Shown piece by piece: positions 3,095 to 20,999 of a stretch of DNA of 64,000 nt. A program made the translations under genes and the position numbers. Each line of letters begins with the position of its first letter. The stretch's first letter is position 1. Source of the stretch: an uncultured Bdellovibrionales bacterium. Its GTDB lineage: Bacteria > Patescibacteriota > Minisyncoccia > Moranbacterales > UBA1568. The notes beneath the pieces were generated by a model. The model searched no databases, was not told the DNA's origin, and saw only the letters and a list, made by a program, of their open reading frames with translations. The stretch is taken from positions 228,824 through 292,823 of the forward strand of contig CAZTBI010000001.1 in the NCBI GenBank assembly GCA_964612055.1. Reading direction: 5' to 3'.

Positions 3095-4009
3095 CTACAC
3101 TTTCAGATAGCGACGGATGGCAATGGTGCTGGAAATCACTCCCAAGAGTACGCCGAGGAGTAAAAGTCCGAAGAGAACAGGAAAGAAGAAATGAAGGTAC
3201 AGTCCCATGAAATTCCCCTGCGGAATCGCTCCTTCAGTCAGTGGTGAGATAAAATAAGCAGCGCCAAAAAGAGAAATGGCCGTCACCAAAGCTGCCGCCA
3301 CTCCGTAGAATATACCTTCGAACATAAATGGCATACGTACATAGATGTTGGACGCCCCTACCAAACGCATGATCTCGAATTCCTGACGGTGCGAATAAAT
3401 AGTGATTCGAATCGTGTTGAACGTAATGAGAACAGCAATAAAGATAAATGACAAGCCGAGAATCAAGCCCACTCTCTTCGCAGTACTATTGATGTGATCG
3501 AGGCGATCAAAAATCTTTTTATTCTTGGCGTAGTTGATACGGCTGATGTCACTCTGGAAGGTCGAATGCTCTATCTGATTGACGATCACATCGTAGTATT
3601 CTGGCTGCACCGCTTTCACAACGAGCGAAGCCAAAAGTGGGTTTTCGCCAATTTCTTCTACTGCCTGAGCAATGATCGGGTCATTACCACTTTCTGAGAG
3701 GAAATTCTTCAGCGCATTATCTCGTGAAACGTACTCGACCGACGCTACTTCTTTTTTGTATTTGGCCAGTTCATCACGAATCTCCAAGATACGCTCTTCT
3801 GAAACATCCGGGTTGAAAGAAACACTCACCGTTACCTTGTCACGCATCCCTTGGAGTACATAGTGTGTCGTCACACCGAGCAGAGTCGAGAGACTGACGA
3901 TGAAAAGCGAAAGTGTCAAAATACTGACCGTCGCAAAAGACAACCAACCATTACGATGGAAGTTGAGCCAGCCTTCTTTAAATGTTCGCCACAGTTTCAG
4001 TGCTTTCAT
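3095..4009 (-). CDS. ftsX: Cell division ABC transporter permease FtsX
   Basis: Four C-terminal TM helices plus a periplasmic domain, FtsX-like. A start at the ATG at 4009 (MKALKLWRTF) avoids a 50-nt overlap with ftsE. Confidence 0.75.
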   Translation of the reverse strand: MKALKLWRTFKEGWLNFHRNGWLSFATVSILTLSLFIVSLSTLLGVTTHYVLQGMRDKVTVSVSFNPDVSEERILEIRDELAKYKKEVASVEYVSRDNALKNFLSESGNDPIIAQAVEEIGENPLLASLVVKAVQPEYYDVIVNQIEHSTFQSDISRINYAKNKKIFDRLDHINSTAKRVGLILGLSFIFIAVLITFNTIRITIYSHRQEFEIMRLVGASNIYVRMPFMFEGIFYGVAAALVTAISLFGAAYFISPLTEGAIPQGNFMGLYLHFFFPVLFGLLLLGVLLGVISSTIAIRRYLKV

Positions 4010-7705: not shown

Positions 7706-8467
7706 TTACTTCGAGCCAAAAGCACTTGGCGTACGAATGGTTTTGAAACCATCTGTTGGTCCGAACCACTTTGAGAGATAACCTTCGCAGTTATTACTCT
7801 TCTGGCAGGTACCATCAAACGTATTGTAGGCTGAGTTTGTTTCGCGCCAGTAATCAATACCCATTTGCAATCGTGCTAGACCACTGATTCGCACCTCCAT
7901 CTCAACAATATAATTCATGCCGGGCTTGGCAGTGGCCTTTGGATCTGTCCAGCCATGATAAATAAAACGTGGTGCTTTACTGACATCAATAACGAGCGCT
8001 TCATCCCCCTTCTTGACCATTCCTTTTGTTGGCTGCGAAGGACCTCCTTGGTACCAACCTGGAATACGTGGGTATAATTCTCCATCAAAAGTCGCCGCGC
8101 CATTATTGTCCGAGAAGTCTGTAACCTCACTCACTACTTCCTCTGTATTAGTAGAGAGGTCATGTTCAATCAACCGGATCGCTCTAATTTCGAGTTTTGC
8201 CTCTTGATCAGCCGGCGTATCACACGGAACGACACTCACCACTTGCATAAGAGCAAGTACCGCATGAAAATCTTCCGGCGCCGTCCCTCGCCAAATAGTT
8301 TCTTTTTTATGCTGTGCCCCAAATGGCACGGTGAAGGACTGAAGCGCCAAAGGAGCCTCTTTGCTCAAAGCGCACACCGCCTCAATCGTTTTGAGTTCTG
8401 GTCCAAATGTAGCGGCATAACTTGCCACCAACATTGTAAGTATTCCAAAATAGACAATTCTTCCCAT
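7706..8467 (-). CDS. Hypothetical secreted protein
   Basis: 253-aa ORF with an N-terminal signal-peptide-like hydrophobic segment. Confidence 0.45.
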   Translation of the reverse strand: MGRIVYFGILTMLVASYAATFGPELKTIEAVCALSKEAPLALQSFTVPFGAQHKKETIWRGTAPEDFHAVLALMQVVSVVPCDTPADQEAKLEIRAIRLIEHDLSTNTEEVVSEVTDFSDNNGAATFDGELYPRIPGWYQGGPSQPTKGMVKKGDEALVIDVSKAPRFIYHGWTDPKATAKPGMNYIVEMEVRISGLARLQMGIDYWRETNSAYNTFDGTCQKSNNCEGYLSKWFGPTDGFKTIRTPSAFGSK

Positions 8468-8525
8468 AACTAAAAGGTGGGGTTAGCGTTCAAAATGACT
8501 CTACATTTAAGCACTTTTCTGTGTT

Positions 8526-8867
8526 TTAGTCAATGGAGATAATGTCGTCCAGAACACTGTCCAAATCATCGATACTTCGTGAACCAATGCCATCAGCCTT
8601 GCACGATGGGTTCTTCAATTCTGCTCGAACAGTTTCTACCACCGAAACCGGCTTCACTCCCTTGATAATATTGTCATTTACGGCGATATTTGGCCCCTCC
8701 TTGCAGCCAGACAGACAGCGTGGGGACTTCATGACCAACGCTTCTTCAGAGGCAAATCCTTGCTTCAAAGCAAGGAGAATATTTTCTGCCCCTCTTTGGC
8801 AGCAGCTTTCCTCGAAACACACTTTGATAGTGGCTCGGACATCTTTTTGTGGAGTGATTTCTTCCAT
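8526..8867 (-). CDS. Thioredoxin-like [2Fe-2S] ferredoxin (NuoE-like fold)
   Basis: C-x4-C (VCFEESCC) and C-x3-C (RCLSGC) followed by GPNIAVND, resembling TRX-like 2Fe-2S ferredoxins. Confidence 0.55.
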   Translation of the reverse strand: MEEITPQKDVRATIKVCFEESCCQRGAENILLALKQGFASEEALVMKSPRCLSGCKEGPNIAVNDNIIKGVKPVSVVETVRAELKNPSCKADGIGSRSIDDLDSVLDDIISID

Positions 8868-8991: not shown

Positions 8992-9605
8992 GTGAAAAAT
9001 ATCACCGCAACCGCATTGCTTTCTGATGGACAGGAAGCTCCAATCGAAACCTACAGTGTCGAACCAAATGATGCTGAGTACCTGCAGTTATTTCGACGTA
9101 TCGTGCATTTGCACAGAGACGCGGCTCTCGTGACGCATGGACTGATCGCTCTCAGCAACGAGGCAGGCAAGTACTTCGATCGAGACCCCTTCGAACAAGC
9201 CACGGGTGACTATCAAAGGTACGCCCACTCCAAGGAAGAGCATTTCATCCACTGGATCATCGTGAAAGGCAGGAAGAAACAACAAGCCCACGTTGGTGGC
9301 ATTGTCGAATGGACCCCTATCACTACCGGAGAAGCAGTCATTCTGCGTCTCTATGTTCTGAAGGCCTTTCGACGCCGCGGTGCGGCAACGGCGCTCCTCG
9401 CAGAAGCTGTTGGGCATATGACCGGCCAAGGATACCAATTCGTCACGGCACTCCCACAGAAGAATCCACGCGATGGCAAAGGATTCCTCATCAGAAGCGG
9501 TTTCTTTCAAACCATGCTGGGGTTTTCCAGAAAGGTCTCCAGGCACCAACTGAATCAACCTCCCAGCTCGAGGAACTCGAGCCGATCATTGTTGTCAACG
9601 ACTAA
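8992..9605 (+). CDS. GNAT family N-acetyltransferase, probably frameshifted or miscalled near 9480-9530
   Basis: GTG start with a GAGGAG SD. GNAT motif A LKAFRRRGAATALL. Frame 1 runs to 9873 with a low-complexity tail overlapping the next gene, while frame 0 ends cleanly at 9605 just before the next SD. Confidence 0.45.
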
Positions 9606-9626
9606 ATACTCACCAAGGAGCATGCG

Positions 9627-10151
9627 ATGCATATCCGTGTCGAATCCCCCTACGTACCGATTGATGGCGAGCTCGCCGCCTTTCGTACGCTCACTGGTCA
9701 AAAAGCCGCACAACTGCATCGACTCACCCAAGAAGCAGCCACCGTGCCAAGAACAACTCTGCACAGATTCGTTTCTGCGCGACATGGCAAGTATGTCTTT
9801 GTCGCCTTTGCCACAGAAAGCGACTTCCCGGTTGCCTTCGCCACCTGCATCGTCGTCGAAACCGGCGTCATGAGCTACGGCATCATCACCGACTTTGTCG
9901 TCTTGGCAGAATGTCGTAGAAAGGGAGTGGCTCATCAGCTGGTCTTCGACATCGTGAGAAGAATGAGTGACGCAAGCGTCCTTCTGGCTTCAGGAAACAA
10001 ACAGCTAACGCTACTCCACGTGGCGATAAGCTCACACCTCATTTCTTGTCGCAAGCTCTTCGAGGGCTGCGGGTTCACGCTCGTGCACGGCAACAATGGA
10101 AACGTCACTGAGAGCATCTACGAACTCCGCCTCACGAAGACTGAAGACTGA
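9627..10151 (+). CDS. GNAT family N-acetyltransferase
   Basis: AAGGAG SD 6 nt upstream of the ATG; motif A VVLAECRRKGVAHQL. Confidence 0.7.
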   Translation: MHIRVESPYVPIDGELAAFRTLTGQKAAQLHRLTQEAATVPRTTLHRFVSARHGKYVFVAFATESDFPVAFATCIVVETGVMSYGIITDFVVLAECRRKGVAHQLVFDIVRRMSDASVLLASGNKQLTLLHVAISSHLISCRKLFEGCGFTLVHGNNGNVTESIYELRLTKTED

Positions 10152-10178
10152 GGATTGCGGACGAAGAACAGACAGACA

Positions 10179-10209
10179 CCCGAAGCGAAACACGCGCTTC
10201 GGGTTTTTC
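10179..10209 (+). terminator. Rho-independent terminator
   Basis: CCCGAAGCG-AAACACG-CGCTTCGGG followed by TTTTT. Confidence 0.55.
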
Positions 10210-10307
10210 ATTTGTAAAATTGACAGTAAATAAAGGTTGCGCCATGATGCTATCAATCGACATCGTCGAGAGTTCCTTTGTCTTTCAACCCCTCTTGGGA
10301 GAAAGTC

Positions 10308-10628
10308 ATGCAAACAGCCCTTTGTTTCGATGCTCAAGATCTCGCGTTTGAAGCAGCAGTCAGACTCCATGCTCCCTGTCCACAACACGAGCTCCTGCGC
10401 TACTTCCTCTATCCGCAGAAATACTGGGAAGGCTTTCTGGAGCGCTTTGGCAGACCCGGAGCAACACCCGAAGAACAGGCTTCCAAAGAAGGTCTCGAGT
10501 ATGTCTATGCCAAATGGTTCTTGGCACTGCGCGAAGCCTGCATGGACCCGGAAAAGGAAATCGTGGTCACCCACGGTTCGCCGGACAGCGACTACAGGTT
10601 ACTCCGGAGCACCGAGGAGCAATCATGA
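10308..10628 (+). CDS. Hypothetical protein, high GC
   Basis: GGGAG SD. The stop overlaps the next start (ATGA). The ORF-track start at 10278 is a TTG. Confidence 0.4.
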   Translation: MQTALCFDAQDLAFEAAVRLHAPCPQHELLRYFLYPQKYWEGFLERFGRPGATPEEQASKEGLEYVYAKWFLALREACMDPEKEIVVTHGSPDSDYRLLRSTEEQS

Positions 10629-11020
10629 TCACACGAGATGATGCTGTCAGAAAAGAGACAATGGCTGATTTTCATACCATTGTCGCGCAAGCTGCAGACT
10701 GCATCGCTCAGGCTTTGAGCTCCATGGAACAGCCGCCACCTCTACAACTGACGCAGGACGAATACGAAAAGGGCGAATGGCCAATACCAGCACCCTACAG
10801 AAAGCTCATCGATCAAGTCCGGAGAGAATTTCAGAATGAGCGACTGTACGAAATTTCAAACGCTCAACTACGCCTTGCAATTCTTCAAGGGACTGAACGA
10901 GTTTCGCTTTTGTATGTTGGTGGAATGCTTGTTGTCACACCCAAGCCAGACAGATGCAGCACGCACTGGAGTCATCGTGGAAACTCTCGTCGTCGCACAT
11001 CGCTCCGCAATCAAGCCTAG
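10625..11020 (+). CDS. Hypothetical protein, high GC
   Basis: GAGGAG SD. Translationally coupled to the upstream ORF. Confidence 0.45.
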   Translation: MITRDDAVRKETMADFHTIVAQAADCIAQALSSMEQPPPLQLTQDEYEKGEWPIPAPYRKLIDQVRREFQNERLYEISNAQLRLAILQGTERVSLLYVGGMLVVTPKPDRCSTHWSHRGNSRRRTSLRNQA

Positions 11021-11131
11021 GCCAACATACCTCGGCTTTTTCATTTCTTGACTTTGTGATATATTTTCGATAGAGTTCAAGGTTCGTGAAACCGCGAACA
11101 TCTATCAACCCTTCCCCAACGGAGGTTTCTC

Positions 11132-11470
11132 ATGACAGCACAACAGTTGTTTGCCAAACAGGCGTTTGCCATGGCCTTGAGCTCGGCCTGCGGGGTCGAC
11201 ATCAAGCCCGAAGCAGTGTCCGTCTCGTTCATGTCGGACGAAGTGCTCCAATGCCTCGTCGTCCGTCCCGGAGGTGTCGCCGAAGGAACCTTCCATGGCG
11301 ACGAAGACGGTGGCATGGTTCACATCGAATCGATCGGCCAGAAGCGCTGCGCCTATACCTACTGGTTCGAGGCCTGCACGGACGGCACGGCGGTCCCGAT
11401 CGAAACGGTGCTGGCATACGCCAACTACGAAGATCGCGTGATCCAAGTCCTGGAGCTGGAAGCAGCCTGA
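11132..11470 (+). CDS. Hypothetical protein, high GC
   Basis: GGAGG SD 6 nt upstream; followed by a terminator. Confidence 0.5.
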   Translation: MTAQQLFAKQAFAMALSSACGVDIKPEAVSVSFMSDEVLQCLVVRPGGVAEGTFHGDEDGGMVHIESIGQKRCAYTYWFEACTDGTAVPIETVLAYANYEDRVIQVLELEAA

Positions 11471-11504
11471 GACCACAAGCGCCGGCACGCCCGGTACACA
11501 AAAC

Positions 11505-11543
11505 GGCAGCACCAGTCCCTGGTCTGCCGCTTTTCTTTTTTTT
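11505..11543 (+). terminator. Rho-independent terminator
   Basis: GGCAGCACCAG-TCC-CTGGTCTGCC followed by GCTTTTCTTTTTTTT. Confidence 0.5.
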
Positions 11544-11557
11544 ATATCAAATTTTCT

Positions 11558-12076
11558 CTAACGCGCCAGAGAAAGGTCGGCGGAGTTGAAAAGCACAGAG
11601 AAGTCCTCGCACCAGGTCAGCACGTAGCGATATTGTGATAGGTCGGTACCTGCCGGTACCGTATAATTTATATTTCCCTCTGTTCCCTTGATCTTCCCGA
11701 GATCAACGTATTTGGTCGCTTGGAGATCAGTCGAAAGATAGACGCGCAGGTCCGGGCCATTGATTGTCTTGTAGTTTTCATAACGGATAATCGTCTCGTC
11801 ACCGTTTTTCACTACCCGTACCGTCCCCGATGCTGGGTGAGCTGTTGTTGCAACCACAGGAACAGTTCCAGCGGCGCTCTTATTCGGGTCAGGCTCCCCT
11901 ACCGCAATCGACTGGGGTATTTCTTTCGACTGACCATCCTGACGTGCAGGTTCGGGCAAAACATCATTGACGACTTTGTTCCGAAGCAACGGAGAAAGCG
12001 CGTACCATGCGATAGCGAGCGCTACAGTAGCTACAAGCGCGAACAAGATATGCTTCTTTTGTATGCCAGCGCTCAT
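11558..12076 (-). CDS. DM13 domain protein, membrane anchored
   Basis: C-terminal LRVYLSTD...LGKIKGTEGNINYTVPAGTDLSQYRYVLTWCEDFSVLFNSA resembles the DM13 domain. The start was set at MSAGIQKK, just before the TM helix. Confidence 0.55.
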   Translation of the reverse strand: MSAGIQKKHILFALVATVALAIAWYALSPLLRNKVVNDVLPEPARQDGQSKEIPQSIAVGEPDPNKSAAGTVPVVATTAHPASGTVRVVKNGDETIIRYENYKTINGPDLRVYLSTDLQATKYVDLGKIKGTEGNINYTVPAGTDLSQYRYVLTWCEDFSVLFNSADLSLAR

Positions 12077-12123
12077 AGAGTTGCAACCAATGTTTATGCG
12101 TGTAGTATAGCAGATTGACAGGA

Positions 12124-12372
12124 ATGAGCTTTTACGGCACCATGGGGAAGCGTATTTCTCACCCCCCCAACTGGTCAAGGAGACGAGAAGTGTCGAAAAC
12201 TGGACAACAAAGCCAAGGTGGTTCGGGCAAGCCGAACTTCAAACCCTACAGGAAGGGTTCCAGCAAAAAGGGTGCGGCTCGCCGGAAAGAGCGTGCGGGC
12301 AAGCAGTGGGCTGCTGGCGAAAAGAAAAAGGACAAGCTGCGCGAAGAGCGCCAGAAGTCCGACAGGTGGTAA
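12124..12372 (+). CDS. Possible small highly basic protein
   Basis: ORF in high-GC DNA followed by a terminator-like hairpin, with a weak SD. It may be spurious. Confidence 0.2.
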   Translation: MSFYGTMGKRISHPPNWSRRREVSKTGQQSQGGSGKPNFKPYRKGSSKKGAARRKERAGKQWAAGEKKKDKLREERQKSDRW

Positions 12373-12439
12373 TCCGCCTTCAATCGAAACAATCGGCAGA
12401 CAACGAAGTCCCGGTAGCAACGCTCCCGGGCTTTTTCAT

Positions 12440-12690
12440 TGACACAAAAGTCTGAGGGAGTTACCTTATGAGCAACAGAGTATGAAGAAGCATAGGAGTG
12501 TCTAATCTTCCATTAGCTGGGCACTTCAGCACAGATGGTCTAGAGCAAATGCTTCTCGGTGGGTAGGATTCCATAGGGAAAAGTCCCCCCTTATGACATG
12601 TTACCTTCTCGCAAGGCTTACGAGCAGCAACCTGAGATGGCGCGACTCTGTTGGTCCGACCACTGGTCTGGGGCATAAATAAAGAAGGCG
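12440..12690 (+). ncRNA. Candidate non-coding RNA in a roughly 250-nt gap flanked by terminator hairpins
   Basis: No convincing ORF or SD. TTGACA at 12439-12444. It ends at the strong bidirectional terminator at 12687-12727. Confidence 0.2.
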
Positions 12691-12727
12691 TCGGAGCAAC
12701 CGCTCTCGACGCCTATTTCTTTTTTTC
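12683..12727. terminator. Bidirectional Rho-independent terminator
   Basis: GGCGTCGGAGCAACCGCTCTCGACGCC with an A-run upstream and a T-run downstream. Confidence 0.6.
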
Positions 12728-13111
12728 TTCCTTCTTTTTGATCGCTCTCCATTGTTTCTGGTAAAAGCGACAACGCTTTGCCAACCATTGGATGGCCTGG
12801 TGATAGCTCATCTCCTGGTGCTCTTCGAGAAACTTAATCACCCCGCCGTGCCGACCACAACCAAAACAATGATAGGTTTGCATGGTTGAACTCAAAAGAA
12901 ACGAAGGCGTTTGCTCCTCATGAAATGGGCAAAGAGCTCTGTACCTCCTTTGCCCATTACGATCTCGCCTCAGTTTCATGAAGCACCTGATCACTGCAAC
13001 GATATCAGCTCTACAACAGAGCCGATCGACGTACTCTTTCGAATAATACATCGTAAGCTCCTGGTTGAAAGAACAATATTCCTTTGTATCATCGAGCCAA
13101 GAGAAAGTCAA
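12713..13111 (-). CDS. Stand-alone DnaG-type CHC2 zinc-finger protein
   Basis: CPFHEEQTPSFLLSSTMQTYHCFGCGRHGGVIKFL matches the primase zinc-binding domain. No TOPRIM or polymerase domain follows. Confidence 0.6.
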   Translation of the reverse strand: MTFSWLDDTKEYCSFNQELTMYYSKEYVDRLCCRADIVAVIRCFMKLRRDRNGQRRYRALCPFHEEQTPSFLLSSTMQTYHCFGCGRHGGVIKFLEEHQEMSYHQAIQWLAKRCRFYQKQWRAIKKKEEKKK

Positions 13112-13464
13112 TTCTTAAAGAAATAAAAAACCCGCACCTTTCTTTCGAAAGATCCGGGTATCTGAGGAACCGAAGAGGGGCTAGGAAAAGCGGAACCTCT
13201 GCGGTATGCGAAAGAGCGGTCGACCGGACACGTAGCGACATTCCAGTCGCCCATATTCAGTCAGCCTCCTCAGGCGAAACAGCAACTGTGCGCAGACGCA
13301 GCCAATTTCTCGCGGGGCCACCCAGCACCTCTGGTTCCTATCCCCAGGTTTGGGTCGCATACCTTTCCGCAAGCCGTACTGGTGTTGGCACCACCCTGCT
13401 TTTTCCACGGCAATGAGGATGTATTTGTCATCCGCTCCAACCTTCACAAGCATGGCAACCTCCT

Positions 13465-13761
13465 TCAGATTGAGTACTTCGACCAAACAAGGATGATGTA
13501 CTTCTGGTAAGAAGCGAAGTCTTGCCCTTTGGCAGCGCCCTCCGCGTCTATTTTCCAAATGGACTCTTCCTTCCCAGGACCATTCCCTTTGACGATGTAG
13601 TGCTCGCCAGACTTCCAAAGAGCGAAACAGGTGTCTTGCTTTCTGTCTGGGCAGTCCACAGGGGCTATGATCCTCGCCCCACGGAGGTCAGGCTTTTCCT
13701 GAGCCAAGACTCCAGTGTGGCACAGAAGGGCCAACGTAAAGATAACGAGGTAGCGTGACAT
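13465..13761 (-). CDS. Small secreted hypothetical protein
   Basis: AAGGAG SD 9 nt upstream of ATG (MSRYLVIFTLALLCHTGVLAQE signal peptide). Confidence 0.5.
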   Translation of the reverse strand: MSRYLVIFTLALLCHTGVLAQEKPDLRGARIIAPVDCPDRKQDTCFALWKSGEHYIVKGNGPGKEESIWKIDAEGAAKGQDFASYQKYIILVWSKYSI

Positions 13762-13845
13762 GATTGGGACTCCTTTCACCATGCCAAAAGAACTCTTTCT
13801 GCTACCCGCTTTGTAGCACCAGGCCGAAGTGAAGTCAATCTATCC

Positions 13846-14133
13846 CTAAGCTTCGAAGCCGATTTTGGATGTCGGAGCCTCCGATGGGGCGACATTACCG
13901 AATTGTGATTCGTATTTAGCCAGGTTATCGGTCATGGCCATGACTATACGTTTGAAATGACTAGGACTGACAATCACTCGGGCATTGAGTGTTCCTGTTG
14001 GAGGAAAAACATTCAAGAAGTCCAAAACGAATTCTTCTTTCGTGTGCAAAATATTGGCCATATTTGAATAGTGACCTCGCAGAATCTCGTCACTGGCCTT
14101 AATCTGAATTTGTGGTGCTTGTGGTTGTTCCAT
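13846..14133 (-). CDS. DUF3467 family protein
   Basis: MEQPQAPQIQIKASDEILRGHYSNMANILHTKEEFVLDF...FKRIVMAMTDNLAKYESQFG matches what I recall of DUF3467. Confidence 0.55.
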   Translation of the reverse strand: MEQPQAPQIQIKASDEILRGHYSNMANILHTKEEFVLDFLNVFPPTGTLNARVIVSPSHFKRIVMAMTDNLAKYESQFGNVAPSEAPTSKIGFEA

Positions 14134-14201
14134 AATGTTGTAATTATTTATTTACCTGCATGACCCTCCAGAGGCGGGCAGGCATTCGCACCCCTTTTTT
14201 T

Positions 14202-14288
14202 TCAACTTCTCATCCAGAGTTTATCCGCCGAAGCCAGGCGTAGGAGGACTTTGATTTGAACTTGGTTTGGTTGTTGTTGTTCGGTCAT
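14202..14288 (-). pseudogene. Truncated N-terminal copy of a DUF3467 gene (MTEQQQPNQVQIK...) plus a shared GGATGAGAA tail; copy A
   Basis: 28-codon mini-ORF starting 14 nt after the upstream gene. Its first 13 codons parallel the DUF3467 N-terminus. Confidence 0.45.
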
Positions 14289-14302
14289 AAGTTTTATTTA
14301 TT

Positions 14303-15130
14303 TTAAATTATTTGTGATAACTTCAGACTCTCCTGTATCCCAAGCGGTTTGATATGGGTGAGCTTTTGCATGAGAGTGTTATCGAGAGATGTATCCACAA
14401 GCATACCGTCTGGTTGTGGTGAAGGCATTGGCACACCATGGAGCCCAGCTGTGGGTACTCCCAGTGTCTCCATTCCCTCTCGGGTAAATTCATACACATT
14501 CATTCTCTCGCCAGAAATATGAATGAGACCAGTATAGTCCGAAAGAGTCAGTATCGTGATGATTTCGGCAGCTTGGTGATAACTGAGAGGAGATTTGTAC
14601 ATGTCAGTGAAACGAGACACTTCCTTCCCTTGGTTCAGATCCTTACGAACTACTTCCAGTCGATCGTCGAGTACACCACTAACGAATCCATACATATAGC
14701 TCGGTCGGATGATGCAATGATTTTCCGTATTCTTTCGAACGAGGTTCTCACAAAGTTCCAGATTCCTACCGTAGAGCGTTACAGGCTGAGGTTGATCGGA
14801 TTCTGTATACATACCTTTCTTGCCATCAAAGATACCATCACTTGATATGTACACTATTCTCGAATTCTTAAAGAACTGGAGAAAGCGCTTCATGGCTTGT
14901 TCGAGAGCGGCGCTATCCTCTGTAAATTCTATCTTGGCTGGGATGATCACTGCGTCAATCTCTTTGCCAGCAAAAACTTTCTCCGGATCATCATTGAAGA
15001 AATCATACTGGCGAGAGGTCTTAAATTTCTGATGCATATTATGCGTCATGACAACATCAGCACCACGTTCTTTGAGTACGCGACATAATTCTTCTCCAAG
15101 AAACCCTGTCCCTATAACCGCTACTCGCAT
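14303..15130 (-). CDS. NAD(P)-dependent sugar epimerase/reductase (RmlD-like)
   Basis: MRVAVIGTGFLGEEL Rossmann motif. Confidence 0.65.
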   Translation of the reverse strand: MRVAVIGTGFLGEELCRVLKERGADVVMTHNMHQKFKTSRQYDFFNDDPEKVFAGKEIDAVIIPAKIEFTEDSAALEQAMKRFLQFFKNSRIVYISSDGIFDGKKGMYTESDQPQPVTLYGRNLELCENLVRKNTENHCIIRPSYMYGFVSGVLDDRLEVVRKDLNQGKEVSRFTDMYKSPLSYHQAAEIITILTLSDYTGLIHISGERMNVYEFTREGMETLGVPTAGLHGVPMPSPQPDGMLVDTSLDNTLMQKLTHIKPLGIQESLKLSQII

Positions 15131-15147
15131 AGTCTTTAATTTTATCC

Positions 15148-15846
15148 TTAGAATTTTCGATGGGAAAATTGGACGATATAGGCAAGCTGAGTTTCCATAT
15201 ATTCTGGTTTATCTCGACGGTAGGAAAAGTATTTTTCCTTGAGACAGTAGGAACACTCACCGGAGTCTATTATTTTTTCAGGCAGTATACCGAGACTTTC
15301 GGCCTGCTGACGCATAATCCCCTTCAAATCAACATGAATACCATTGTCACGAGAGATATATTCTGGATACTGAGCAAATGATGAAAGGACGTCTTCTTGT
15401 ATTTCAAAATGTTTCGCACAAATACCAGGACCAAAAGTAAGAATTATTTCAGATCTTTTCCCACCAGCTTTTTCAATCGCAGAAAGAGTCTCGGCAATAA
15501 CTCCAGCGACAATACCGCGCCATCCACAGTGCGCCAAGCCGATGATGCCAGAGTGTTTTTCTTCAAAGTAAACCGGGAAACAATCAGCTCCGGTGAGCGT
15601 GAGAATAATATCTGAGTCTTTGGTAACGAGAGCATCTGTTTCGGGGGTGATATATGGAGAATGTCGATTGATCATTGCCACCCGTGTACCATGTACCAGG
15701 TTCGCAACAACAATTTGCTTTCCGCCAAGTCTGAGTGCTTCGAAAAACTCTTTACGATGAGCAATATTCTCTGCGCGCGGATTGGTAAGCGGCAAATACA
15801 TCGAGCCATCCTTCTTTTCCGAAAATCCTTTCAAAACTTTGTTCAT
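15148..15846 (-). CDS. pgeF: Laccase-domain protein YfiH/PgeF
   Basis: GADCFPV and HCGWRG motifs. Confidence 0.8.
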   Translation of the reverse strand: MNKVLKGFSEKKDGSMYLPLTNPRAENIAHRKEFFEALRLGGKQIVVANLVHGTRVAMINRHSPYITPETDALVTKDSDIILTLTGADCFPVYFEEKHSGIIGLAHCGWRGIVAGVIAETLSAIEKAGGKRSEIILTFGPGICAKHFEIQEDVLSSFAQYPEYISRDNGIHVDLKGIMRQQAESLGILPEKIIDSGECSYCLKEKYFSYRRDKPEYMETQLAYIVQFSHRKF

Positions 15847-15864
15847 AAGATTATTATAGCACTC

Positions 15865-15918
15865 TTGACTTTCTTATGAAAAAGTGCTATAAAATGAGGT
15901 TGGCAAATTCCTTGCCAA
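15865..15918 (+). promoter_or_regulatory. sigma70 promoter (TTGACT-17-TATAAA) followed immediately by the inverted repeat TTGGCAA-ATTCC-TTGCCAA, a candidate operator
   Basis: Read directly upstream of the high-GC ClpP-like gene. Confidence 0.45.
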
Positions 15919-15963
15919 TCCGATTAAATAATCGGCCAGAAGATCTTTTACAGGAGAGACAGC

Positions 15964-16536
15964 GTGAATTTCAACCACTTCTTCCCGCTCTACACCAGCC
16001 ACATGACCGGCGATGACGCCGTGACCGCTACCCAAAGCATCCAGAACGGGGAAGCGTGCGGAGTGGTGATCAACTCGCCCGGTGGCACCATGAACAGCTT
16101 CATGGACGAAGCCGTGGCCCTCATCGATCAGCGGTTCACGGCTCTGGGACTCACCATTGGCTCGCTGGCTGTCGACTACTACCTCTGCGCCAGTACCCGG
16201 ATCGCACTCCCCAGCTCCACCTTCTTCGTCCACCACCCGCAGTTCGGGCCAGAAGAAGAAGCAGGCCAGACGCTGGAACAGCTGTTCTGGAAGTACGAAG
16301 TGAGCCGGGCGCTCATCGAAACTGGCCAGGCATCGGAACGGGCACGCAAAAGCCACAACGAGCTCATCCGCGTGATCCTCGGTACCGCCGACTGCCAGTA
16401 TTTCGGCGTACGATGGGTCGCCAAGCGGACCGGTCTCGAGCCGGGCATCGTCGACCAACTCATGCGCGACGAAGTCATGCTCACCGCGAGCGAAGCGCTC
16501 CAACTGGGGTTCGTGCATCACATCATCGACACCTAG
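15964..16536 (+). CDS. ClpP-like (S14/crotonase-fold) protease homolog, high GC, probably horizontally acquired
   Basis: GTG start with an AGGAGA SD. VVINSPGG, FVHHPQ and LTASEALQLGFVHHIID resemble ClpP-family cores. The gene is about 62% GC. The antisense ORF 15874-16608 was judged spurious. Confidence 0.5.
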   Translation: MNFNHFFPLYTSHMTGDDAVTATQSIQNGEACGVVINSPGGTMNSFMDEAVALIDQRFTALGLTIGSLAVDYYLCASTRIALPSSTFFVHHPQFGPEEEAGQTLEQLFWKYEVSRALIETGQASERARKSHNELIRVILGTADCQYFGVRWVAKRTGLEPGIVDQLMRDEVMLTASEALQLGFVHHIIDT

Positions 16537-16554
16537 GTCAAACGACCAAGGCAT

Positions 16555-16600
16555 CAAAAAAGCGCTGACAGAGAAATCTGCCAGCGCTTCTTCATTTTTA
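16555..16600. terminator. Bidirectional terminator
   Basis: AGCGCTGACAGAGAAATCTGCCAGCGCT with flanking A and T runs. Confidence 0.5.
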
Positions 16601-16652
16601 TTTCTCATCCGTCGCTTTGATTTGAATCTGATTTGGTTGTTGTTCGGACATA
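16599..16652 (-). pseudogene. Truncated N-terminal DUF3467 copy B (MSEQQPNQIQIKATDEK-stop)
   Basis: 17-codon mini-ORF starting 5 nt after the upstream gene stop. It is homologous to DUF3467 codons 1-16 and to copy A. Confidence 0.45.
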
Positions 16653-16656
16653 ATTA

Positions 16657-17238
16657 TTACTTTAGAAAAGGATATTTCTCCTGAAAGAAAGTTTTGAGAC
16701 TAACAAAATTATCTTCTCTTACATGACCCCATCCTTGAAGATCTTGCTTTCTACTTTGTGCAATGAATATATCAATTACAGAAAAGAAATCTTTTATTTG
16801 AGATGCATAACTCTTAATTATTTTCCCTAGCTCTTCTTCATCGATAAAGTTGTGCTCTTTATTTTTTTTGAGAACATACATAAGCTCCTGAAGAAGCATA
16901 AAAAAGTCGGTTGCTTCTTCTCTCACCATTTCTTCAGCTCCACCTCCCGTGTACTGAATGCCACCTTTTGTTATCTTAAAATCGTTTAATGGAATACGTT
17001 TGACTAGAATGCTCTGAAGATACTCATAAAAATGAAGGAAGAAAAATTTTTCGTAGTACTCTTGAAACTTTCTGCCATAGTAAAAGGTTTGTGTTACCTT
17101 TTTCTGAAAATCTCTAACACTTTTTTGGTTTTTCTGATGTAAGTATGCAGCAGCTGCAACTGCTATCCCTAAACCAGATAATAAATCACCCATGTTTCCT
17201 GCTTCTTGACTAGTGACGAGTTTAATCAAATCTTCCAT
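16657..17238 (-). CDS. Hypothetical protein, AT-rich
   Basis: 193-aa ORF with no recognisable motifs. Confidence 0.4.
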   Translation of the reverse strand: MEDLIKLVTSQEAGNMGDLLSGLGIAVAAAAYLHQKNQKSVRDFQKKVTQTFYYGRKFQEYYEKFFFLHFYEYLQSILVKRIPLNDFKITKGGIQYTGGGAEEMVREEATDFFMLLQELMYVLKKNKEHNFIDEEELGKIIKSYASQIKDFFSVIDIFIAQSRKQDLQGWGHVREDNFVSLKTFFQEKYPFLK

Positions 17239-17302: not shown

Positions 17303-19231
17303 TTATTTTTTCTCTTCGCTAGGCTTCTCCTCGCCAGCAGGCTCGGTTTCGGCGTCCCTTGGAGCTTCCGTAGAGCCTTCCTTCTTCTCGCCATCTTCTG
17401 CCTGGCTCGGCGAAGCTTTAGCGGAGTCGGCAGCGGCTTGGTACAGTTTTTGTCCGATTTTTTGCGCCTCTTGAGACAAAACCTCGGTAGCTTTCTTGAT
17501 GGCTTCTAGATCATCGCCATTCTTTACCTTGTTCAATTCCGTGATGGCGTCTTCGACTGGTTTCTTCTCATCAGCCGTGACCTTGTCACCCGCATCCTTG
17601 AGTGCCTTTTCTGTCGTGTAGGACAGAGTATCAGCCATATTACGAGCTTCGATCAATTCTTTCTTTTTCTTGTCTTCATCAGCATGCATCTCAGCATCCT
17701 TCTTCATACGCTCGATCTCCTCTTTGGAAAGTCCAGTTGAAGACTCGATACGAATGTTCTGACTCTTGCCGGTCGCCTTGTCCTTGGCGGTTACCGAGAG
17801 AATACCAGAAGCATCAATGTCGAATGTGACTTCGATCTGTGGCACCCCGCGTGGAGCAGGCATGATGCCATCGAGGATGAACTGACCGAGAGATTTGTTG
17901 TCAGAGGCCATCTCACGCTCACCCTGGAGCACATGAATCTGCACGCTCGGCTGATTGTCAGACGCGGTCGAGAAGACCTGTGAGCGGCTAACTGGGATAG
18001 TCGTGTTGCGATCAATAAGCGGTGTCCGGACTCCTCCCATGGTTTCGATACCAAAGGTAAGCGGCGTGACATCAAGCAAGAGCACATCTTTCACCGAACC
18101 TTCGAGCACACCACCCTGGATAGCAGCACCGAGAGCCACTACTTCATCTGGGTTCACCGTGATGTTTGCCTTCTTGCCGAAGAATTTCTCAACAGAAGAA
18201 AGGACAAGTGGCATACGGGTCATACCACCGACCAACACCACTTCGTTGATATCAGAGACAGAGAGCTTGGCATCAGCAAGTGCTTTCTTGACTGGTTCAA
18301 ACGATGCCTCAACCAAGTCACCGACTAATTCTTCCAGCTTGGCACGGCTCATCTTGATCAGAAGGTGCTTCGGACCATCGCTACCGGCAGTGATAAACGG
18401 CTGATTGATTTCTGTTTCTTGAGCGGTCGAGAGTTCAATCTTGGCTTTTTCAGCAGCTTCCTTGATACGCTGGAGCGCCAATGGATCTTTCGAGAGATCG
18501 AGTCCTTCTTGCTTCTTGAATTCATCGAGAATCCAGTGAATAATCCGCTGATCGAAGTCATCACCACCTAAGTGGGTATCACCGTTGGTCGAACGGACTT
18601 CTACGGTGTCTTCGGAAACTTCGAGGATAGAGATATCAAAGGTTCCACCACCTAAGTCATAGACAGCGATCTTCTCATCTTTCTTTTTGTTGAAACCATA
18701 GGCGAGCGCTGCTGCTGTTGGTTCGTTGATGATACGACGGACATTGAAGCCTGCGATTTCTCCAGCTTCTTTGGTCGCTTTGCGTTGCGAATCATCGAAG
18801 TAGGCCGGTACGGTGATGACCGCGTCGGTGATCTTTTCTCCGAGCTTTTCCTCAGCATCCGCTTTCAGTTTGGCGAGGATCATACCACTAATTTCCTGTG
18901 GTGTGTATTCTTTGCCACCCATGACGATCTTCACCCCTTCACCGGCCTGAATAACCTTGTACGGCAAGGTCTTCATGTCGCGGCTCACTTCTTCATCGTT
19001 GAAATGTCGTCCGATGAGACGCTTCACGGAGAACAGCGTGTTCTCTGGATTGGTGACCGATTGGCGCTTGGCAAGCAAACCTACCAGACGCTCATTAGTC
19101 TTGCTCATCGCTACCATCGACGGCGTGGTGCGATTCCCCTCCTTGTTTTCGATAATGCTAGGAGTCCCTCCTTCGACAAATGCCATCGCCGAGTTGGTGG
19201 TCCCGAGATCGATACCTAATATCTTGGCCAT
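17303..19231 (-). CDS. dnaK: Chaperone DnaK (Hsp70)
   Basis: [16 protein letters not shown] and other Hsp70 signatures. Confidence 0.95.
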
Positions 19232-19271: not shown

Positions 19272-20177
19272 TTATTTTACTGATACTTTTGCTGGGCGGA
19301 TCACTTTGCCTCCAAGTCGGAAACCATTTTGGAGTACTTTCGCTATCACATGCTTTTCTGCTTCTTTCTTCCCTTGCCCGTCCGTAGCCTCGGCAGAGGA
19401 GGGTTCGTTTTCTTGACTGACGGCTTCATGAATAGTCGGATCAAATGCGTCCCCTTCTTTTGCTTCTATCACTTCGACACCGTTCTGCTTTACTACGTCT
19501 TCCAACTGTTTCTCGATGTACTGGATACCAACGACCCAAGGGCTCTCTTTCTGTTCCGGTGGGACATGCATGGTCGCGGCACGGAAGTTATCGAGAACTG
19601 GGATGATATCGAGAACCAATTTTTCTATCAGATAGCCGCCAAGTTCTTTCTGTGATTCCTGCTGACGCTTTTTGTAGTTTTCAAAGTCCGCCTGTATTCG
19701 CTTGAGATCTGTCAGATATTCTTCCTTCTGTATATGAGTTGTAGCAGAACGGATAAACTCCTTTAGCCATGATTTATACTCTTTTCCGGATTCTATCTCC
19801 TCGACCGTCTTCCAATCGTATTCAGAATGTTCATCACTGATATTGATTTCTCCACCTTTGAAAATAGTGAGGTAGGCGAATACCGCTCGGTATGGGTCGT
19901 TGTTTCGGTCTGAATCAAGTTTCATGTGACATCCAGCAACCGCACCCTTGAGGTCAAATTCTATCTCTTCTCCTAATTCTTCTTTAATTTCACGAAACAG
20001 AGCCGCTTCCACATTTTCTCCTGTATCTACTCGACCCCCGGGAAGCTCCCATGGGCCATACTTCTGATGATACTCTGAATCCTCAAACGCATCCTTCACC
20101 AAAAGAAACTTCTTATCGCTTGGTCGGTACAGAATTATTTTCTGACTGAGTTGGAAATGTTCGTAATTTTTGTTCAT
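19272..20177 (-). CDS. grpE: Fusion protein: N-terminal Nudix hydrolase domain plus C-terminal GrpE nucleotide-exchange factor
   Basis: Residues about 1-150 carry a perfect Nudix box [25 protein letters not shown]. Residues about 155-301 are GrpE-like (DFENYKKR helix, [14 protein letters not shown] tail). It sits between hrcA and dnaK. Confidence 0.8.
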
Positions 20178-20958: not shown

Positions 20959-20999
20959 ATTATATAAAGTGATTAGCACTCTGTCAAGTAGAGTGCTAA
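20959..20999 (-). promoter_or_regulatory. CIRCE operator TTAGCACTC-N9-GAGTGCTAA, with the -35 TTGACA inside the spacer and a -10 TATAAT (17-nt spacing) for the hrcA-grpE-dnaK operon
   Basis: Read directly: CIRCE at 20973-20999, -35 at 20982-20987 and -10 at 20959-20964 on the minus strand. Confidence 0.85.

Follow-up and report, generated by a model that had tools for sequence, protein, structure and literature searches.

The window studied here, that is the whole stretch of 64,000 nucleotides (nt) covering positions 228,824 to 292,823 of contig CAZTBI010000001.1, belongs to an organism which is, as judged from the loci encoding relatives of its DUF3467 protein, a Moranbacteria-like member of the Patescibacteria from groundwater. 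In this window we investigated a gene of the family DUF3467 and two short open reading frames (mini-ORFs) that reproduce its beginning. Following the minus strand, the locus is composed of dnaK, the orphan gene hyp193, mini-ORF B, a strong hairpin, a ClpP-like gene on the opposite strand, pgeF, an rmlD-like gene, mini-ORF A and the intact DUF3467 gene (Table 1). The intact gene reaches 80.1 bits on the full-length PF11950 profile, for which the cut-off is 25, and thus belongs to the family. Both mini-ORFs are located on its strand and upstream of it; mini-ORF A translates as MTEQQQPNQVQIKVLL... and mini-ORF B as MSEQQPNQIQIKATDEK*. An earlier note on this DNA had described them as truncated 5' copies of the DUF3467 gene. 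The copies are real and translate as described there; the position given for mini-ORF A stands, whereas mini-ORF B starts and ends one base earlier than the 16599-16652 reported. Throughout the text they are referred to as relic A and relic B.

Table 1. Features of the DUF3467 locus and of its surroundings, with positions counted from the first letter of the window.
Feature	Position	Strand	Evidence or remark
Intact DUF3467 gene, 95 aa	13846-14133	-	Pfam PF11950, E=1.3e-22
Intact gene, codons 1-29, putatively of atypical ancestry	14047-14133		
Intact gene, HTKEEFVLDF-coding core	14017-14046		
Intact gene, clade-typical body			
Relic A, putative decayed 5' fragment of a clade-typical DUF3467 gene	14154-14288	-	MTEQQQPNQVQIK..DEKLKG..
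ORF of relic A	14202-14288	-	
Relic B, putative 5' fragment of a clade-typical, dnaK-linked DUF3467 gene	16598-16651	-	MSEQQPNQIQIKATDEK*
rmlD-like NAD-dependent reductase gene	14303-15130	-	Pfam RmlD_sub_bind 2e-22
pgeF (YfiH / Cu-oxidase_4 family)	15148-15846	-	Pfam 3.9e-48; TIGR00726 4.9e-40
Palindromic bidirectional promoter, pgeF/ClpP-like	15853-15894		inverted repeat I15
ClpP-like gene, 190 aa, 61% GC, orientation opposite to the dnaK operon	15964-16536	+	weak ClpP matches
Strong bidirectional terminator hairpin, adjoining the ends of relic B and of the ClpP-like gene	16556-16593		inverted repeat I9
hyp193, 193-aa orphan gene in the variable slot directly 3' of dnaK	16657-17238	-	
dnaK, upstream conserved neighbour	17303-19231	-	synteny
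Canonical CIRCE operator (TTAGCACTC-N9-GAGTGCTAA) overlapping the hrcA promoter	20973-20999		perfect match; 0.02 expected by chance

The similarity between the copies exceeds chance. A 31-nt core common to both relics, GAACAACAACCAAAYCARRTTCAAATCAAAG, occurs exactly twice in the window, and no match was obtained in 100 shuffles. At the nucleotide level the three 5' regions align as one repeat family, in which 16615-16644 is 90% and 14097-14126 is 70% identical to the reference copy 14249-14278, and the repeat search also recovered the flanking repeats D4 (27 nt, 85%, the start-codon segment) and D6 (the GGATGAGAA tail, 81%). As the earlier note had remarked, each relic begins shortly after the stop codon of an unrelated gene, with a gap of 5 nt between hyp193 and relic B and of 14 nt between the rmlD-like gene and relic A.

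Both relics reach past their own ORFs, to approximately codon 22-27 of the gene. Relic B is homologous to real genes between about 16682, which lies in its upstream region, and about 16592; for relic A the homology is firm as far as about 14191 and possible as far as 14154 (ATGCAGGT). Compared to relic B and to intact genes, relic A holds an additional 33 nt (14216-14248) between ...QIK and DEKLK as well as an expanded A-run, and the strain variants L004 and L005 possess relic A with the same 33-nt insertion. We further report that two GC-rich insertions in 14154-14248 (TCCTCCTACGCCTGGCTTCGGCGG.. and ..CCCGCCTCTGGAGGG) are mutually complementary (CCTCC/GGAGG, GGCGG/CCGCC), and that a string GTCTCCTACG resembling them follows the pgeF stop in L088.

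Being too short for the PF11950 profile, the relics were linked to the family by nucleotide and peptide match to DUF3467 5' ends. Relic B together with some 25 nt upstream of it gives blastn matches to such 5' ends in at least eight relatives (among them L006, L031, L039, L009 and L012), the best of them in L006 with 94% over 32 nt, and it matches the nucleotide profile of the 5' end with an nhmmer E-value of 1.2e-6. Its 27-nt core is identical to L006 in 26 of 27 positions, compared to 18 of 27 for the intact gene of the window itself. According to the aligned N-termini of 85 loci (80 distinct genome loci) both relics follow the clade consensus ..QIQIKATDEKLKGEY.., and within the general form M..QQ..Q(I/V)QIKATDEKLKGEY(S/A)N..Q(I/V)LHTKEEFVLDF they fit better than the intact gene (..QIQIKASDEILRGHYSNMANILH). 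These matches show that the mini-ORFs are homologous to the DUF3467 5' ends typical of the clade, and we take them for non-functional relics of native 5' ends.

To place the relics in the context of the family we compared 80 genome loci and 80 metagenome loci encoding relatives of the intact protein, and approximately 180 related loci overall. A self-BLAST of the 5' ends within each locus gave AT-rich noise only, and an nhmmer profile of the 5' end was used instead. Over all loci this profile found extra copies only in the lineage of the window, in the hyp193-bearing loci L175-L179, in L169 and in the unrelated L044; around 160 other DUF3467 loci do not contain them. One additional nhmmer match, in L109, proved to be a GrpE motif and was discarded as a false positive. 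The relics are always 5' fragments, always on the strand of the gene and always upstream of the intact copy. With a full-length nucleotide profile no fragment of the DUF3467 body or of its 3' part was detected in any of the roughly 180 loci, and a relaxed tblastn search of the window for C-terminal relics returned chance matches only.

Two of these loci are directly comparable to the window. In L175 a partial dnaK is followed by hyp193 (87%), a decayed relic, a terminator, three reverse genes and an intact DUF3467 gene. The relic of L175 has no ATG and is located at exactly the position of relic B; when these two are aligned locally, only 3 of 2000 shuffles reach the score. Relic A agrees with the start of the intact gene of L175 in 37 of the first 40 nt, a score which none of 2000 shuffles attained. 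In L169 a DUF3467 fragment (..ATDEKLKGE..) is followed by a terminator, the reverse ClpP-like gene (87%), the same palindromic promoter and an intact DUF3467 gene. The fragment is identical to the adjacent intact gene of L169 in 33 of 40 nt (0 of 2000 shuffles), and the junction between fragment and terminator is homologous to that of relic B. Relics homologous to relic B occur in L169 and L175-L179. In L171 the ClpP-like gene stands head-to-head with DUF3467, and a probable decayed relic lies past the terminator. L007 has its intact gene directly in the dnaK operon, with an N-terminus (MSENNQIQIKATDEK) resembling relic B; the body of this gene (81% over 156 nt) and the island downstream match the intact gene of the window and the segment from about 13800 down to about 10300.

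The case in L044 is an independent one in a distant lineage. At 9841-10000 of this locus a 5' relic mini-ORF (MNNQPQQQQLQIKAN..) is followed by an imperfect palindrome of about 70 nt, which is rich in TACTCCC repeats and stands directly before the intact gene. L089 carries two full-length DUF3467 paralogs on one metagenome contig, at 3594-3839 and 8262-8546.

The interval between dnaK and DUF3467 differs in gene content in every close relative. In the closest ones, whose DnaK is 85-91% identical, the gap measures 0.6-7 kb and is filled with different genes in each genome: a KAP-type NTPase follows dnaK in L007, unrelated small ORFs in L009, L012 and L015, and an AAA ATPase with two orphans in L175. 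Not all strains carry the segment 14303-15147 with the rmlD-like gene: L005, which comes from the same aquifer and is 98% identical, lacks this gene and has relic A immediately behind the pgeF stop, so that the breakpoint falls at the start of the relic. The variable gene content and the missing rmlD-like gene in L005 indicate that the DUF3467 start is a recurrent junction of gene gain and loss, which bears out the suggestion of a recombination hotspot at the gene start made in the earlier note, as does the intact counterpart of relic A in L175. The gene hyp193 in this slot has five homologues and no family match in Pfam, NCBIfam, PHROGs or PADLOC. Just upstream of the homologues the available sequence encodes DnaK in L182 and L001, and in L175-L180 and L183 it holds a partial gene of unknown family.

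The intact gene itself appears to be composed of two parts. For this comparison the 5' core was defined as the 63 nt from the IQIK motif to the His of HTKEEF, and the 3' part as the following 156 nt. The gene of the window is 0.54-0.60 identical to clade members in the 5' core and 0.72-0.81 in the 3' part. The difference is most prominent in comparison to L007, with 36 of 63 identical positions in the 5' core and 127 of 156 in the 3' part (Fisher p=0.0003); for the other clade members the p-value of the same contrast ranges from 0.01 to 0.08. Among the clade members themselves no such drop is seen; their 5' core equals or exceeds the 3' part in conservation. With moderate support, given the shortness of the segment, this suggests a mosaic in which a 5' third of different ancestry is placed on a clade-typical body. 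We also considered whether the body is closest to L175, the locus with the intact gene of relic A type, and rejected this (0.72 compared to 0.81 for L007). The nucleotide conservation of the family peaks in the HTKEEFVLDF core (0.85, compared to 0.60-0.77 elsewhere), and relic A, relic B and the relic of L169 all stop within a few codons upstream of this core.

Body and downstream synteny are constant, clade-typical 5' ends are stranded upstream in one orientation, the working gene has a 5' third apparently of different ancestry, and cargo genes lie in between; this combination follows the pattern of an insertion-duplication. We propose, with a probability of roughly 0.6, that the relics are scars of serial insertion events anchored in the conserved core, by which native 5' ends were pushed upstream. 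The ancestral state would have been a DUF3467 gene directly behind dnaK, as is normal in Patescibacteria. In the Moranbacteria clade incoming DNA, carrying a DUF3467 5' end of its own and its own cargo genes, would repeatedly have recombined into this gene, with a crossover in or beside the core at one end and a non-homologous joint at the other. Each event would strand the resident 5' end (about 17-27 codons) upstream, right after the preceding gene, and regenerate an intact gene downstream. Such an insertion-duplication could proceed by homology-facilitated illegitimate recombination (HFIR) or, with a circular intermediate, by a single crossover of the Campbell type.

At least two rounds would be required. 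The older one, common to L169, L170 and L175, may have placed the terminator, the reverse ClpP-like gene and the bidirectional promoter behind relic B. In a later round the next 5' end could have been displaced to become relic A, with the present chimeric gene as the outcome; the additions in between would be pgeF and the rmlD-like gene, which varies between strains. That only 5' fragments survive, each starting a few bases after an upstream stop, could be due to selection for an intact DUF3467 gene in combination with tightly packed upstream genes. As the spacers measure only 5-14 nt and DUF3467 is apparently required, viable joints would be limited to approximately 90 nt between the upstream stop and the core, and each relic would therefore start right behind an unrelated gene.

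Several points weigh against this proposal. We recovered no genome with an empty site and no intermediate, for example one with the order dnaK, hyp193 and an intact gene of relic B type. The order of events is thus a reconstruction, and we infer it, as well as the recombination mechanism. The end-points of the relics are blurred by later indels (gaps of 13 nt and 3 nt relative to L169, the expansion of the A-run, the GC-rich insertions), which obscure any microhomology at the joints and any common end-point. For relic A one has to assume either that the insert was very short, with some 68 nt in addition to the new 5' end, or that deletions followed, which is not parsimonious. The mosaic signal comes from a segment of 63 nt and is strong in comparison to one relative only; local accelerated evolution could also lie behind it. 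Moreover, these organisms are not known to undergo natural transformation or HFIR.

The relics could alternatively stem from the decay of redundant paralogs, which is essentially the model of the earlier note: two or three complete DUF3467 copies, with other genes between them, would once have been present, and the bodies of the upstream copies would have been deleted. The two full-length genes 4.6 kb apart in L089, one genome with two loci (L013 and L016) and the intact gene in L175 where the window has relic A are in agreement with this. Independent deletions are, however, unlikely to stop at nearly the same codon before the core in relic A, relic B and the relic of L169. Such a decay would leave the atypical 5' third on a clade-typical body unexplained, and it finds no body or 3' remnant in any of the loci. 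A serial replacement of paralog bodies is further contradicted by the constant body and downstream order shared with L007, as it is the 5' ends that were displaced. We therefore regard paralog decay as unlikely. A role of the relics as leader peptides or attenuators (upstream ORFs) regulating DUF3467 or its neighbors, also raised in the earlier note, is suggested by their form: both are ATG-initiated ORFs directly behind an upstream gene, a strong terminator comes after relic B, and in L044 a long hairpin stands between mini-ORF and gene. Conservation would be expected of such a leader, yet the relics are confined to one lineage group and one independent case, they accumulate indels, and the versions in L175 and L169 have lost the start codon or the N-terminal part. 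The region of relic A folds no better than shuffled sequence (z=0.48), and an Rfam scan of the whole window returned three tRNAs only and no family at the relics. Moreover, 2.4 kb of DNA, including a gene in the opposite orientation, lie between relic B and the intact gene. A regulatory function thus seems very improbable to us.

Small mobile cassettes represent another possibility. These would integrate at the DUF3467 5' end, either site-specifically or by a homology arm, and carry a replacement 5' end, so that relic and gene start would correspond to attL and attR. The ClpP-like unit of L169 (terminator, gene, promoter and new 5' end) is indeed bracketed by a direct repeat of 33/40 nt, the end-points of the relics look alike in three cases, and the ClpP-like unit with promoter and terminator is found in several different contexts. 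Against this, the unit occurs in L166, L167 and L168 without an adjacent DUF3467 fragment, and the cargo between relic and gene is completely different in the window and in L175. No integrase, transposase, recombinase or defence gene was found in the interposed segments of the window, L169, L175 and L044 with Pfam, PHROGs, PADLOC and NCBIfam; all that came up in this search were weak matches to KAP or AAA NTPases, in relatives only. The repeat search detected no inverted-repeat pair bounding 14134-14288, 14303-15147 or 15853-16597, as would be expected of a transposon or of a miniature inverted-repeat transposable element. Cassettes of this kind are in our opinion improbable. The same low expectation applies to a bolder version, in which the ClpP-like unit (terminator, gene, CIRCE-like promoter and a DUF3467 5' arm to about codon 25-27) and other blocks would be recombinase-free Patescibacteria cassettes that circularize and re-integrate by a single crossover via the host gene start they carry. 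If this were true, targeting by a homology arm would always regenerate the host gene and leave a relic with a fixed end-point, and the junction between dnaK and DUF3467 would be a dedicated site of cassette acquisition, functionally resembling an integron without an integrase. Finally, the mixed composition of the locus and its origin from a metagenome-assembled genome might point to an assembly chimera from a short repeat. The independent Logan assembly L001 matches the window with 100% identity across 12,323 nt, from dnaK to beyond the island; the arrangement is also present in L003 (100% identical, 3.8 kb) and in L002, a 98.5% identical strain, and the hyp193 protein is found on a public contig of 486 kb as well. 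The longest exact match between relic A and relic B is only about 12 nt, far under the k-mer sizes of assemblers. Because independent assemblies reproduce the arrangement at 100% identity, it is not an assembly artefact, and we consider the chance of a chimera next to negligible.

The proposed insertion-duplication has relatives among described systems. The work of Jackson et al. from 2009 is reportedly connected with the C-terminal displacement in Rhs and contact-dependent growth inhibition (CDI) systems, and de Vries and Wackernagel (2002) as well as Prudhomme et al. (2002) are said to have reported HFIR in naturally transformable bacteria. An HFIR-type sequential displacement has been proposed for the orphaned 3' ends of Rhs genes and for the effector-immunity arrays of the Vibrio cholerae type VI secretion system (Kirchberger et al. 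2017, PMC5361080), and HFIR in naturally transformable bacteria has been described (PMC3240628). As in these displacement systems, a conserved part of a gene serves as recombination anchor, the resident variable end is displaced and kept as an orphan beside the intact gene, and serial events lead to a row of relics in the same orientation, with HFIR proposed and no integrase involved. The locus studied here has the conserved anchor beside displaced ends, the series of orphans in one orientation next to a single intact gene and, with moderate support, the mosaic with its breakpoint at the anchor. The polarity is mirrored, however, as 5' ends are displaced upstream and not 3' ends downstream. 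The gene concerned is a chaperone-operon-linked DUF3467 gene of unknown function and not a polymorphic toxin; the relics are only 17-27 codons long, lack an immunity gene and give no sign of function or re-use; and the cargo genes bear no relation to the anchor gene. In the window the genes in between are ClpP-like, pgeF and rmlD-like, and those of L175 include an AAA ATPase; PADLOC gave no match for the two window proteins scanned (the ClpP-like protein and hyp193), and Pfam no toxin domain. The locus works like the displacement arrays but is not a member of them.

With HFIR the locus has in common the one-sided homologous anchor with a non-homologous joint, the foreign DNA trapped beside a conserved gene and the mosaic anchor gene; it differs in being known from sequence comparison, with the competence of the organism assumed. 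Campbell-type insertion-duplications and integrative elements with att sites likewise show a direct repeat of a gene end flanking the insert, of which one copy is truncated and the other intact and partly donor-derived. Here neither an integrase nor a circular form nor defined ends were detected, and the repeats are 65-88% identical. The direct repeat around the ClpP-like unit of L169 might correspond to attL and attR; the cargo differs by lineage. Leader-peptide attenuators share the short ORF and the hairpin upstream of a gene (relic B; L044), but the ORFs described here are not conserved among relatives, show no alternative terminator and antiterminator structures, and encode the N-terminus of the gene itself. 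The feature is most likely a set of recombination scars and as such a new instance of a known footprint of genome evolution, not a new genetic element.

The ClpP-like gene, part of the mixed composition mentioned in the earlier note, has a GC content of 61% compared to 47.6% for the window. Its protein yields weak ClpP matches in Pfam, NCBIfam and the PDB, including the INSPGG and C-terminal motifs, and its family is rare, with only 10 homologues detected among 5.8e9 proteins. On a simple reading the high GC content would mark a very recent foreign insertion; this was rejected, as the family has 54-62% GC in all hosts examined, which themselves have 44-49%. The gene always possesses its own promoter, a 5' untranslated region with two hairpins and a terminator, whereas its neighbors vary (pgeF, DUF3467, DUF1189, CutA1). 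The terminator hairpin folds with -40 kcal/mol (z=-3.8) and, from its position after relic B, is predicted to end the dnaK operon now. In L170 this hairpin is exactly inverted (reverse-complemented with its loop) between collinear flanks, that is, a hairpin flip.

The genes pgeF, rmlD-like and DUF3467 all stand behind the bidirectional promoter, which faces the ClpP-like gene in the other direction. A TG-extended TATAAT ends 6 nt before the pgeF ATG, and the pgeF mRNA is probably leaderless. The promoter palindrome contains half-sites resembling CIRCE, the operator of the repressor HrcA, at 15857-15889 (TAGCACTC-N17-AGTGCTA); their spacer of 17 nt departs from the canonical N9 spacing, which is found upstream of hrcA itself (Table 1). 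These two are the only pairs of half-sites in the window, with 0 expected. The palindrome is kept in L169 and partly in L170, and L171 retains the AGTGCTA arm only. DUF3467 may thus have remained under the control of HrcA after its uncoupling from dnaK, and HrcA may control the ClpP-like gene as well.

Two further observations concern the neighborhood of the locus. The gene at 19272-20177 (minus strand) encodes a GrpE of 301 aa with an N-terminally fused NUDIX hydrolase domain, and full-length matches in several relatives suggest that this fusion is conserved in the clade. The stretch from about 9000 to 13800, located between DUF3467 and the backbone genes that follow, has a raised GC content (50-54%) and contains orphan ORFs as well as genes for a DM13-domain protein (11558-12178) and for a CHC2 primase-type zinc-finger protein that stands alone (12713-13111). 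It is partly common to L007, is not part of the L088 backbone and is probably foreign or accessory DNA. L088 carries a similar high-GC insert between pgeF and DUF3467.

With respect to the family, the order hrcA-grpE-dnaK-DUF3467 holds for about three quarters of the loci whose flanks are long enough, as counted over 80 genome loci, and for many metagenome loci; some lineages have the order grpE-DUF3467-dnaK. Across the phylum DUF3467 usually follows dnaK at a distance of 0.1-0.6 kb, and this neighborhood suggests that the protein is an uncharacterized component of the DnaK system. In L054 and L058 DUF3467 is followed by a DnaJ-like motif at a distance of 1-2 kb. We found no solved structure of a DUF3467 protein, and the literature consists essentially of one incidental mention.

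The relics represent a readable record of gene acquisition in streamlined, uncultured Patescibacteria, in which foreign and accessory genes were stacked at one junction of a chaperone operon while the essential-looking DUF3467 gene was rebuilt each time. The mini-ORFs should accordingly be annotated neither as genes nor as regulatory leaders, and the dnaK-DUF3467 junction lends itself as a marker for variation between strains of Moranbacteria. Conserved gene cores may serve as one-sided recombination anchors in these organisms. The position of DUF3467 as a near-universal companion of hrcA, grpE and dnaK in the phylum may outweigh the relics in biological interest.

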